Below, piece after piece: positions 18,690 to 64,000 of a stretch of DNA of 64,000 nucleotides; position 1 is the stretch's first letter; the number at the start of each line of letters is the position of its first letter. The position numbers and the translations under genes were made by a program. The stretch covers positions 26,102,001 through 26,166,000 of the forward strand of contig OZ024750.1 in the NCBI GenBank assembly GCA_964016885.1, given 5' to 3'. This DNA comes from Eledone cirrhosa (taxonomy: Eukaryota). Under the pieces are notes generated by a model. The model had not been told where the DNA came from. It saw only the letters and a program-made list of their open reading frames with translations, and did not search any database.

Positions 18690-18753
18690 ATGTCCTCCCT
18701 TTCTATTGCTGGATTTATTATATTATTAACATGGCAGGTCACTTTAGCAGCTG
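18690..18753 (+). CDS. Exon 1, signal peptide [21 protein letters not shown]
   Basis: GCAATG start, 21 codons plus 1 nt, CTG|GTAAG donor (phase 1); hydrophobic core with a small-residue end. Confidence 0.7.
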
Positions 18754-63700: not shown

Positions 63701-64000
63701 TCGAAATGGAAGATGTTCAGATGGATGTTCTGCAGGTTATACTGGTGACATATGCCAAGAAGGTATATCATAAAGTTGTTACATAATTACGATAATTACA
63801 AACACACACATATATATATATATGTGTGTTTGTGTGTGTTTATGTGTGTGGAGGGTGTTGCAGATGCGGGTGTGTATGTGCATGTGTTTGTGTGTGTGTG
63901 TAAATATGATGTTTAATATAGAAATCTTATATATATTTCAGAATGCCGAATAGGAAAGTTTGGTCTCAATTGTAATAGGACATGCCAGTGTATCAACAAC
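18690..64000 (+). CDS. Multi-exon gene: secreted or cell-surface protein with tandem 8-Cys laminin/MEGF-type EGF-like repeats (3' end outside the window)
   Basis: Signal exon plus at least 11 symmetric phase-1 exons with TTTCAG acceptors and GTAT donors. Linking the signal exon to the array is inferred from strand and phase. Confidence 0.8.
19180..20340 (-). mobile_element. Decayed RTE-like fragments
   Basis: (CAT)n-ttcacgtccg 3' end like that at 58838; degenerate coding remnants at 20037-20294. Confidence 0.45.
21330..21895 (+). mobile_element. About 530-bp terminally redundant non-autonomous Penelope/retrozyme-like unit
   Basis: Direct repeat taatttttaaaattttcttattttacgtctttcatata at both ends, internal hammerhead, TA-rich flanks. 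Confidence 0.65.
21756..21834 (+). ncRNA. Type I hammerhead ribozyme
   Basis: ACTCC-CTGACGA-cGTAATG..CATTACa-GAAA-CTAATTAG-TT-GGAGT: stem I, intact core, stem II and palindromic stem III. Confidence 0.85.
22036..22342 (+). mobile_element. Short 5'-truncated Tx1 copy
   Basis: Near-identical to 23240-23545; flanked by (TATC)n. Confidence 0.9.
22358..23549 (+). mobile_element. 5'-truncated Tx1 copy (degenerate ORF2 C-terminal third)
   Basis: [41 protein letters not shown] followed by (TATC)n. Confidence 0.92.
23667..23808 (+). mobile_element. tRNA-derived SINE (OK-like)
   Basis: ggcggtgagctgg..gaatcgttagc head, GAGTTCAAATTCC B-box, aagtaccagt tail. Confidence 0.75.
24482..25051. mobile_element. 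Inverted copy of the 12560-13133 repeat
   Basis: Reverse-complement similarity over about 570 bp; next to (TATG)n. Confidence 0.75.
25690..27270 (-). mobile_element. Decayed RTE-clade LINE fragments
   Basis: [28 protein letters not shown]-type remnants; (AAG)n tail. Confidence 0.6.
27675..27796 (+). pseudogene. Decayed EGF-like exon
   Basis: ECPAGKYGE / [28 protein letters not shown] with a frameshifting deletion; acceptor TTTCTG instead of TTTCAG; phase-1 donor altered. Confidence 0.8.
28006..28042 (-). ncRNA. Variant minimal hammerhead (U3-A8, A13C) in the Neptune pLTR; copies at 33994-34030 (+) and 37379-37415 (+)
   Basis: TTT-TTGAAAA-GCATT-TAGA-AATGC-GCAA-CCGG-TA-AAA; stem I is only about 3 bp. 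Confidence 0.5.
29069..31392 (-). pseudogene. Neptune RT/GIY-YIG ORF (one frameshift near 30700, one stop near 30477)
   Basis: ORF-track pieces 30661-31215 and 29069-30463, plus intervening [20 protein letters not shown]. Confidence 0.9.
31353..32663 (-). pseudogene. Upstream ORF of the Neptune element (about 436 codons, helical N-half, N/H/R/P-rich C-half), two in-frame TAGs
   Basis: Hand translation: one frame from MPTKTD to ...[15 protein letters not shown], with stops only at 32061 and 31518. Confidence 0.7.
32808..34152 (+). mobile_element. Inverted 5'-truncated copy of the Neptune 3' end and pLTR
   Basis: Reverse complement of about 27882-29250, differing mainly in microsatellite lengths. 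Confidence 0.95.
34662..35212 (-). mobile_element. About 550-bp non-autonomous hammerhead-bearing repeat; diverged inverted copy at 53150-53695
   Basis: Reverse-complement similarity between the two loci; microsatellite flanks. Confidence 0.7.
34698..34772 (-). ncRNA. Type I hammerhead ribozyme with long stem II
   Basis: GCTGT-CTGATGA-...-GAAA-GATGTA-TC-ACAAC; the core is conserved in the 53587 copy. Confidence 0.65.
35693..36258. repeat. Fold-back inverted repeat (arms about 270 bp) between (TA)n tracts
   Basis: 35693-35965 is the reverse complement of about 35988-36258; a related fragment lies at 18878-19040. Confidence 0.92.
35856..35900 (-). ncRNA. Minimal hammerhead; the mirror copy at 36052-36096 (+) has U4C
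   Basis: AGTCA-CTGAAGA-gGTCACA..TGTGAC-GAAA-GGAC-TA-TGACT. Confidence 0.7.
36886..37540. mobile_element. Composite: two inverted Neptune pLTR ends enclosing a copy of host intron
   Basis: 36886-36960 matches 27842-27915; 36958-37340 matches 38225-38606; 37338-37540 matches 33953-34153. Confidence 0.85.
37830..37961 (+). CDS. EGF-like exon [44 protein letters not shown]
   Basis: tttcag / gtatat, 132 nt, phase 1-1, 8 Cys. Confidence 0.9.
38592..38632 (+). ncRNA. Minimal type I hammerhead (family A)
   Basis: GTG-CTGATGA-cAGCTaataAGCTa-GAAA-CTAG-TT-CAT, with extended stem I (GGAA/TTCC, CTGACA/TGTCAG, TTCAA/TTGAA). Confidence 0.8.
39248..39382 (+). CDS. EGF-like exon [45 protein letters not shown]
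   Basis: tttcag / gtatat, 135 nt, phase 1-1. Confidence 0.92.
39566..39697 (+). CDS. EGF-like exon [44 protein letters not shown]
   Basis: tttcag / gtatat, 132 nt, phase 1-1. Confidence 0.92.
40306..40346 (+). ncRNA. Minimal type I hammerhead (family A)
   Basis: Same motif as 38592-38632. Confidence 0.8.
40980..41114 (+). CDS. EGF-like exon [45 protein letters not shown]
   Basis: tttcag / gtatat, 135 nt, phase 1-1. Confidence 0.93.
41309..41464 (+). CDS. EGF-like exon [52 protein letters not shown]
   Basis: 156 nt, phase 1-1, in-frame 21-nt insertion. Confidence 0.9.
42004..43230. repeat. Tandem dimer of an about 613-bp unit embedded in (TA)n
   Basis: Units start at 42004 and 42617, are near-identical, and end in ...GGTCTAGAGCTA. 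Confidence 0.92.
43610..43968 (-). mobile_element. RTE-like LINE 3' fragment
   Basis: RMLRMAL...[12 protein letters not shown]...[13 protein letters not shown]. Confidence 0.75.
44320..44797 (-). mobile_element. CR1/L2-like LINE 3' fragment
   Basis: [22 protein letters not shown]...FKKSLDKFL; (TTATTCAAAG)n tail at about 44290-44320. Confidence 0.75.
45298..45333 (-). ncRNA. Variant hammerhead (U3-A8 core, U16.1C)
   Basis: CTT-TTGAAAA-GCAG-AAGAA-CTGC-GAAA-CGCG-CA-AAG. Confidence 0.5.
46190..46305 (+). mobile_element. tRNA-derived SINE inserted in the family A array
   Basis: A box TAGCTGAGTGG, B box GTTCGATTCCC, then gtccttgggcaagacact. Confidence 0.8.
46658..46698 (+). ncRNA. Minimal type I hammerhead (family A, best-paired copy)
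   Basis: CGGTG-CTGATGA-cAGCTaataAGCTa-GAAA-CTAG-TT-CATCG. Confidence 0.85.
47757..47860 (+). ncRNA. Degenerate hammerhead with long stem II
   Basis: GGTCT-CTGACGA-aATGATAGAG...CTCTATCATa-GAAT-AAG-TA-AGACT; stem III is damaged. Confidence 0.45.
48200..50427 (+). pseudogene. PLE RT/GIY-YIG ORF, one in-frame TAA (49322) and one frameshift in a C-run (near 49765)
   Basis: [37 protein letters not shown]...YVG...[12 protein letters not shown]. Confidence 0.9.
51657..51722 (+). ncRNA. Type I hammerhead ribozyme
   Basis: TATTTTGT-CTGAGGA-(hairpin CATATT/AATATG)-GAAA-TATATA-TA-ACGAAATA. Confidence 0.8.
52530..52664 (+). CDS. EGF-like exon [45 protein letters not shown]
   Basis: 135 nt, phase 1-1; donor A|gtatat. 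Confidence 0.9.
52837..52971 (+). CDS. EGF-like exon [45 protein letters not shown]
   Basis: 135 nt, phase 1-1. Confidence 0.92.
53587..53660 (+). ncRNA. Type I hammerhead ribozyme within the repeat at 53150-53695
   Basis: GCTGT-CTGACGA-...-GAAA-TATGTA-TC-ACAGC. Confidence 0.7.
54480..54614 (+). CDS. EGF-like exon [45 protein letters not shown]
   Basis: 135 nt, phase 1-1. Confidence 0.93.
54788..54922 (+). CDS. EGF-like exon [45 protein letters not shown]
   Basis: 135 nt, phase 1-1. Confidence 0.93.
55755..55809 (+). ncRNA. Type I hammerhead ribozyme
   Basis: ACTGC-CTGAAGA-GGTcACAGCCAaggaTGGCTGTcACT-GAAA-TATATA-TA-GCAGT. Confidence 0.85.
55973..56313. repeat. Fold-back element with a hammerhead in each arm; rearranged relative at 58681-58826
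   Basis: 55973-56117 is inverted relative to 56157-56313. Confidence 0.85.
56248..56298 (+). ncRNA. Type I hammerhead; copies at 55988-56038 (-, U16.1G) and 58696-58746 (-)
   Basis: AGATTC-CTGATGA-tTTCtaaaGAAt-GAAA-CAG-ttccagtc-CTG-TA-GAATCT (GUA cleavage triplet). Confidence 0.8.
56951..57827. repeat. Partial tandem repeat, period about 605 bp (pLTR-like)
   Basis: 56951-57222 is repeated at 57556-57827; followed by (TA)n. Confidence 0.88.
58328..58419 (-). ncRNA. Hammerhead with long stem II and one core change (A6U)
   Basis: ATAGGGT-CTGTCGA-GCTGCCGATCA...TGATCAGTGGC-GAAA-CGCGCG-TA-ACCTAT. Confidence 0.6.
58838..62330 (-). mobile_element. Near full-length degenerate RTE-clade LINE (APE, RT, PHD-like finger)
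   Basis: [51 protein letters not shown]...C..C..WVHKRC; (ATG)n tail; stops and frameshifts. Confidence 0.92.
62595..63186. repeat. Partial tandem repeat with AG-rich minisatellite
   Basis: 62597-62755 is repeated at 62935-63186; GGGTAGCCATCATAGAGAG subrepeats. Confidence 0.75.
63628..63762 (+). CDS. EGF-like exon [45 protein letters not shown]
   Basis: 135 nt, phase 1-1. Confidence 0.93.
63942..64000 (+). CDS. EGF-like exon, cut by the window end ([20 protein letters not shown]...)
   Basis: tttcag acceptor, same frame and motif as the other exons. Confidence 0.9.

Follow-up and report, generated by a model that had tools for sequence, protein, structure and literature searches.

Introduction

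SCARF1, MEGF10, CED-1 and Draper are conserved proteins encoded by one or a few gene copies, and their tails are long or contain tyrosine motifs; MEGF10, CED-1 and Draper carry NPxY and YxxL tail motifs and an N-terminal EMI domain. Besides, the Drosophila Eater and Nimrod receptors are clustered EGF-like repeat receptors that turn over in repeat number, and Dscam1 contains arrays of similar exons, with docking/selector complementarity beside each variable exon. Here we describe g05, a predicted gene with an array of EGF-like module exons in a 64,000-nucleotide stretch of the Eledone cirrhosa genome (assembly GCA_964016885.1, contig OZ024750.1, hereafter C10; C10:26102001-26166000). This stretch is called the window, and positions are given in its own numbering unless a contig is named. 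We found g05 to be one of a set of recently duplicated tandem genes for predicted type-I membrane proteins. The family is under diversifying selection and on balance probably consists of pathogen- or parasite-recognition or decoy receptors.

The EGF rod of SCARF1 binds ligands through surface charges, and the protein dimerises, according to the accessible part of the report (PMC11563577). The predicted Eledone proteins share with SCARF1 (PMC11563577), MEGF10, CED-1 and Draper the type-I layout and the rod of tandem EGF-like modules, but they form dozens of young paralogs with short tails, and neither NPxY nor YxxL occurs in the 15 C10 tails read to the first stop. They resemble Eater and Nimrod in clustering and in repeat-number turnover and differ in module type; with Dscam1 they share arrays of similar exons, with no sign of mutually exclusive clusters in the g05 family.

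The closest known kind is the clustered scavenger-class-F-like/MEGF receptors. Biomphalaria clusters of the same build have been associated with schistosome resistance (PMC13712769, PMC12297450), and links to resistance against parasites and to expression in haemocytes are described for molluscan homologous clusters (PMC12297450), in the portions of these papers available to us. As far as the accessible description of their simplest subgroup (LG5R subgroup 1A) goes, its testable features recur in the predicted Eledone genes, namely a signal peptide, one transmembrane (TM) segment, a small featureless tail and clustered genes, and the EGF region may likewise be MEGF10/SREC-like; that subgroup also has sister subgroups with galactose-binding and protein tyrosine phosphatase (PTP) domains, and many fragments, as here. 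Unlike it, the Eledone genes belong to a cephalopod-type genome and an independent recent radiation, have a Gly-Lys-Asp-Ser repeat tail, and reach 31 modules per gene on C10 and possibly more than 50 on a second contig, C2. The part of the subgroup 1A account available does not mention selection on the TM exon, and the resistance association belongs to snails, whereas the Eledone genes are known from sequence alone.

Two related systems have additional domains. The SudRes1 MEGF/galactose-binding-domain receptor tyrosine phosphatases of Biomphalaria sudanica likewise are tandem paralogs that gain and lose EGF modules, in the text accessible to us (PMC12297450), and the Octopus F5/8C-EGF-TM-PTP receptors XP_036365016, LOC115219456 and CAI9733298-9 have the same 43-45 residue module (best identity, 73%). 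In contrast to SudRes1 (subgroup 1C, as there described) and the Octopus receptors, neither a galactose-binding domain nor a phosphatase was found in the C10 genes. The family is not a receptor phosphatase, not a MEGF10/Draper ortholog and not a demonstrated Dscam-type array.

Exon anatomy of g05

The predicted exons of g05 are as follows.

18690..18753, + strand: signal-peptide exon (ATG at 18690; 64 nt, 21 codons plus 1 nt)
27675..27796, + strand: dead first EGF exon, E0 (acceptor AG changed to TG, frameshifting deletion, donor lost)
37830..37961, + strand: EGF-like module exon E1, 132 nt (alignment-based exon calling, as for E2-E10)
39248..39382, + strand: EGF-like module exon E2, 135 nt
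39566..39697, + strand: EGF-like module exon E3, 132 nt
40980..41114, + strand: EGF-like module exon E4, 135 nt
41309..41464, + strand: EGF-like module exon E5, 156 nt, with a 7-residue insertion in the last spacer
52530..52664, + strand: EGF-like module exon E6, 135 nt
52837..52971, + strand: EGF-like module exon E7, 135 nt
54480..54614, + strand: EGF-like module exon E8, 135 nt
54788..54922, + strand: EGF-like module exon E9, 135 nt
63628..63762, + strand: EGF-like module exon E10, 135 nt
63942..64000, on to C10:26166076 (window-equivalent 64076), + strand: E11, last g05 module, seven cysteines, donor GG
C10:26168528-26168618, beyond the window end: stalk/TM exon, 91 nt, phase 1-2
C10:26178601-26178898, beyond the window end: tail exon with 12-nt repeats of Gly-Lys-Asp-Ser type, lysine/aspartate-rich, first stop after 26 residues

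The signal exon encodes a hydrophobic core (the peptide was judged by eye) and ends in a phase-1 GTAAGA donor, and E1 to E10 are all complete, with AG/GT ends, phase 1-1, an open frame and eight cysteines. A preliminary description of this DNA had proposed an array of eight-cysteine module exons of 132-156 nt, one of them with a longer last spacer; ten intact exons, an eleventh that crosses the window end and the insertion in E5 bear this out. Its count of at least eleven like exons holds for ten, whereas E11 departs from the others as listed, and the dead E0, whose counterpart is intact in g02, g07, g08, g10 and g19, had been overlooked. Similarly, the claimed pairs with introns of about 160-195 nt are real (172-194 nt within pairs), but E1 is unpaired. 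E4-E5 repeat E2-E3 at an offset of 1.73 kb, and E8-E9 repeat E6-E7 at an offset of 1.95 kb.

Both shared flanks that had been noticed were recovered. The acceptor-side motif AATATGATGTTTAATATA occurs 15 times in the window, 11 times beside exons and four times orphaned, and the 22-nt donor pattern occurs 105 times in the 3 Gb genome against none for the reversed control; among the 100 matches listed, all are in the C10 and C2 clusters. Furthermore, a six-frame search for the cysteine pattern gave eight matches in the window and none in each of 20 shuffles. The orphaned copies of AATATGATGTTTAATATA, at 36985, 38249, 39965 and 55077, have no exon behind them and are carried by block duplications.

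The suggested search past position 64000 for TM and cytoplasmic exons yielded the last two exons listed above, beyond which lie two exon-like blocks that contain stops in most paralog copies. The predicted g05 protein would thus consist of a signal peptide, 11 modules, a TM segment and a short charged tail. N-glycosylation sequons occur about once per module.

A tandem gene family on C10 and C2

Matches to the signal exon were located at 20 sites on C10, between 25.85 and 27.30 Mb, and at 24 distinct sites on C2, between 310.3 and 315.1 Mb. These counts are lower bounds, since the DNA searches scored only part of the candidates, and amount to at least 44 genes, g05 being gene 5 of 20 tandem paralogs on C10. 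There, 20 TM exons alternate 1:1 with the 20 signal exons, and all 210 EGF hits lie inside the signal-to-TM intervals (879 kb examined, covering 66-100% of each interval; most of this was chosen from inside the intervals, and a gap-free 264 kb likewise has no EGF hit outside). The signal exon therefore belongs to the array, as had been proposed, and the exon array of the preliminary description is real; the predicted gene is, however, one of many paralogs and also includes a TM exon and a short tail exon.

Among the 210 EGF hits, 172 have AG, GT and an open frame, and 159 fit the exact cysteine spacing, giving 134 distinct sequences, with 2-31 intact modules per C10 gene. In the paralogs examined, signal exons were intact in 30/30 cases and TM exons in 30/30, all 30 TM exons being in frame and hydrophobic. 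Inspection of the blocks shared by the paralogs revealed no further coding exon between the signal exon and the first module, although no EMI-directed profile search was made. The arrays grow and change their module number through block duplications of 1.7-23 kb (for instance, 2.57 kb in g18, 4.3 kb in g20, 6.5 kb in g01 and 23 kb on C2). Of the 159 exons with exact spacing, 96 have their nearest counterpart in a different gene and 59 within their own gene, with 4 ties. Because the introns differ by only about 4%, the family is young and recently amplified; the earlier proposals of recent amplification, of MEGF/SREC-type modules and of a variable ectodomain are supported. The diversity demonstrable here lies in gene number, module number and selected substitutions.

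Several arrangements were seen on C2. A candidate 0.9-Mb member (C2:313089039-314007828) runs from a single signal exon to a single TM exon and includes 52 matches to the exact EGF pattern; neither exon type was found again in the interval, although further copies could be concealed among unscored candidates. Seven module exons, of which one is truncated and another has a stop, make up a 23-kb unit that recurs at 96-99% identity. At C2:310774727-310834374, units of a signal exon and a single EGF exon are repeated without a TM exon of their own, upstream of a TM exon at 310708333; they might encode secreted peptides of a single module, act as alternative 5' cassettes or be fragments. Finally, a tail exon region at C2:314974268-314989329 is present in at least eight tandem copies, each with an early stop.

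Diversifying selection

We examined selection by pairwise counts and single-omega maximum-likelihood models. In comparisons among 19 C10 genes, divergence reaches 55% in the TM exon, against a mean of 4.2% (range, 0-7%) in the introns 3' of it. Within this exon, the difference is 0.041 at four-fold sites (35/858), compared with 0.042 in introns and 0.43 at first codon positions, and omega was estimated at 4.2-5.9 (2dlnL, twice the log-likelihood difference from omega = 1, of 68-103). For 14 disjoint pairs picked by intron similarity, the proportions of nonsynonymous (pN) and synonymous (pS) differences were 0.264 and 0.134, with 0.032 in the intron, and, on a conservative count, the stalk had a pair ratio of 3.8 and the helix one of 1.6. 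In six ungapped disjoint pairs, drawn from the 13 TM exons of equal length (6 of the 19 were left out for length), 57/132 helix residues differ, as do 0/32 four-fold sites and 99/3452 intron bases. Exon-specific hypermutation as the source of the excess was rejected, given that divergence at four-fold sites does not exceed that of introns.

A weaker signal was obtained for the EGF exons, with an omega of 1.63 (2dlnL, 21.7; 134 distinct exons) and a pN/pS of 1.27-1.70 in 67 disjoint pairs (p from 0.04 to 1e-6, depending on kappa). This set was chosen by cysteine spacing, so that the invariance of the cysteines is fixed by construction; about a dozen positions, e.g., 5, 11, 12, 20, 24 and 34, are hypervariable. 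The signal exon changes at about the intron rate (pN, 0.045; pS, 0.030; intron, 0.038). We conclude that the predicted EGF exons, and above all the predicted TM exon, are under diversifying selection. To our knowledge, positive selection this strong inside a membrane helix, with a clean four-fold and intron control, is unusual. The literature searched, which left aside most subscription papers and supplements, contained no description of TM-helix selection in a mollusc receptor family or of such a cluster in a cephalopod.

The last module: altered donor and lost cysteine

The GG donor of E11 recurs in the family. It is found in 12 exons, which are the last module of g02-g09 and g11-g13 and the penultimate one of g01; Cys7 is lost in nine of them, and three contain a stop. 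GTAACA is present at exon nt 118 in 10/12 of these exons versus 3/161 ordinary ones, and in E11 this in-frame GTAACA, 18 nt upstream of the normal site, likely serves as the donor. Splicing at GTAACA would preserve phase 1 and remove Cys8, which we take to be the disulfide partner of Cys7. We infer a coordinated loss of one disulfide through a substitution and a predicted donor shift; as the 12 exons share ancestry, they do not represent independent events. Alternatively, a GG-donor exon may be skipped or read through to an in-frame stop, which would give a secreted form; an in-frame stop follows 156/161 ordinary exons. The paired disulfide loss offers a checkable case of co-adjustment between a splice site and a protein.

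Module identity and evolutionary origin

Searches of single exons against Pfam gave EGF-like matches below threshold only (best E, 0.0077), and a profile search matched proteins named MEGF6/10/11-like and draper, together with one PDB EGF-like chain (6u11). A single module was modelled by AlphaFold with a predicted local distance difference test (pLDDT) score of 64 and had no Foldseek match, so that for the disulfides we keep to the laminin/MEGF-type pairing (C1-C2, C3-C5, C4-C6 and C7-C8), which presumably applies here.

The nearest proteins are Octopus F5/8C-EGF-TM-PTP receptors, with up to 73% identity per module. None of the 25 PTP hits in the genome falls in either cluster, and tblastn gave no PTP match in 879 kb of C10, an exon-by-exon search of limited sensitivity. 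Similarly, none of the 43 F5/8C hits in the genome is on C10; the C2 cluster contains two stop-bearing remnants, and intact ones lie at C2:230-233 and 257-262 Mb. These results suggest that the family derived from galactose-binding/EGF/tyrosine-phosphatase receptors by loss of both the lectin and the phosphatase parts. Since the EGF-TM-short-tail layout is common (56/160 compared proteins pass a crude screen), the architecture is not new; the signal peptide has no similarity among these 160 proteins.

Apart from these clusters, many F5/8C-type exons with near-identical scores lie about 100-200 kb apart at C20:3.5-5.3 Mb, C27:13.1-15.4 Mb, C16:0.58-0.71 Mb and C23:28.9-29.1 Mb. They may represent another large recent expansion of lectin genes.

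Proposed function and alternative explanations

If the family consists of recognition or decoy receptors, each exon would supply four complete disulfides in phase 1-1, and such self-contained exons could be gained, lost or skipped without harm. Their turnover would proceed by unequal crossing-over between near-identical intron flanks. The binding surface would be formed by the variable residues between the fixed Cys and Gly, on a disulfide-fixed, glycosylated rod. As neither an enzyme nor an NPxY/YxxL motif is present in the tail, the proteins would depend on a partner for signalling and may function through such partners or as decoys. Which partner or paralog a receptor pairs with is likely decided by its rapidly evolving membrane helix, and module skipping likely adds length variants as a secondary source. 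By analogy, the selecting agent would most likely be pathogens.

Several points weigh against this explanation. An immune role is suggested by analogy with gastropods only, and diversifying selection would fit reproduction or self-recognition equally well. All family members are predicted genes, known at the DNA level alone. Exon recombination or conversion may inflate the omega of the EGF exons, and the tree for the TM test was built from the same codons. Besides, 38/210 EGF hits are broken, partial or mis-placed (the rows for partial exons from alignment-based calling include a few mis-placed duplicates), the stop-bearing GG-donor exons are those of g11-g13, and g05 itself is damaged at E0, which is dead, at the last donor, which is lost, and in the tail, which is shortened to 26 residues. 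In the 15 C10 tails read, the first stop comes after 14 to 181 residues; given this and the exon-like blocks past the stop, decay of some transcripts is possible. Lastly, g03-g06 are 94-99.8% identical over most long blocks, and some of these copies could be assembly duplicates; their EGF hits number 14, 8, 12 and 6, so they cannot be merely two haplotypes.

The selection pattern does not name its agent, and proteins of this architecture could instead serve gamete or self/non-self recognition, with sexual conflict or allorecognition as the diversifying force. The layout of signal peptide, EGF modules, TM segment and short tail is that of nematode SPE-9 and resembles ascidian fester, and the repeat turnover resembles that of abalone VERL. 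We regard this as unlikely, however, in view of many paralogs rather than many alleles at one locus, and of the parasite resistance and haemocyte expression linked to molluscan homologous clusters in the accessible part of PMC12297450.

It is still less probable that the genes provide a neuronal or skin cell-identity or adhesion code, like the cephalopod protocadherin expansions, with a subset of paralogs per cell and pairing through ectodomain and helix. Tandem paralogs without a signalling domain would suit such a code, and the C2 units of signal and EGF exons upstream of one TM exon recall promoter-choice systems. On the other hand, each C10 gene has its own TM exon, and a neutral divergence of only about 4% with many broken exons indicates rapid turnover, unlike conserved wiring codes.

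An equally low probability attaches to the family being mostly decaying segmental duplicates, with g05 and many others as pseudogenes carried along by unequal crossing-over. The defects of g05, the 38 defective or mis-placed EGF hits and the recurrence of the stop-bearing exon in the 23-kb C2 unit all speak for decay. Yet neutral decay cannot yield a pN far above four-fold and intron rates, and hydrophobicity and frame are kept in 30/30 TM exons, as is the cysteine frame in 159/172 open-frame modules. By itself, g05 may be a pseudogene.

Least probable of all is the idea of one gene diversified mainly by combinatorial or mutually exclusive use of interchangeable exons, since g05 belongs to a family of 44 or more genes, every exon has nearly the same splice flanks, no constant region is set apart, and homologous proteins are modelled with long tandem module runs. 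In its favour, all intact exons are phase 1-1, and dead exons within otherwise intact genes imply that exons can be bypassed. Furthermore, RefSeq isoform models of Octopus sinensis LOC115219456 lack 43, 43, 88 and 131 residues, i.e., 1, 1, 2 and 3 whole modules; the isoforms are computational models, two of which involve near-duplicate modules and may be mis-mapped. Module skipping would alter rod length and not select one exon per cluster. No shared docking site was found beside the exons, the inverted matches in the array being only intronic repeats of 51-360 nt (short pairings would escape), and nothing points to a Dscam-like mutually exclusive choice. The preliminary description is confirmed in its observation and partly supported in its interpretation.

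Upstream paralog and mobile elements in the window

The window also contains the 3' end of the upstream paralog, g04.

2702..3049, + strand: tail exon of g04, first stop after 103 residues
10933..11200, + strand: two more 3' exon-like blocks of g04 (starts at 10933 and about 11118), downstream of the stop

These two blocks are likely a relic or 3' untranslated exons; a coding reading was dropped, with no match among the 160 compared proteins. A 71%-identical homolog at C2:230774560-230774810, inside the intact F5/8C gene cluster at C2:230-233 Mb, is a possible link to the parental family.

The long intronic open reading frames are retrotransposon-like, and four of six tested match reverse transcriptase (RT) or endonuclease families. 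A 1.43-kb inverted repeat (97%; 27825-29250 and 32808-34210), inserted just after the dead E0, flanks a minus-strand RT and GIY-YIG (Penelope-like) element. Sequences of long interspersed nuclear element type comprise a 1167-residue endonuclease-RT frame inside the 3' region of g04 (6403-9906, +), a broken copy in the intron before E10 (59137-62262, -) and a remnant without a Pfam match (48176-50427, +). Two intronic duplications were also seen, one in tandem of 613 nt (97.6%; 41999-43235) and one 273-nt direct repeat with a spacing of 605 nt (56951-57828).

Implications

Cephalopod recognition receptors are poorly known, and the present family supplies a tangible candidate repertoire, one that is very young and under strong selection. 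The unexpected result is the selection on the TM exon, which makes pairing specificity set by the TM segment directly testable among paralogous receptors. A further reading, of low probability, is that the genes form an octopod-specific repertoire of more than 40 receptors, built from some 300 interchangeable modules. Specificity would then have two seats, ligand binding in the modules and partner choice in the hypervariable helix. If so, the repertoire would be expanded further by module skipping, by secreted forms (156/161 exons, if read through, would meet an immediate stop), by the alternative 5' cassettes on C2 and by the candidate 0.9-Mb giant member, and the choice coded by the helix would be that between homo- and heterodimers, or docking onto full-length phosphatase receptors as modulators.

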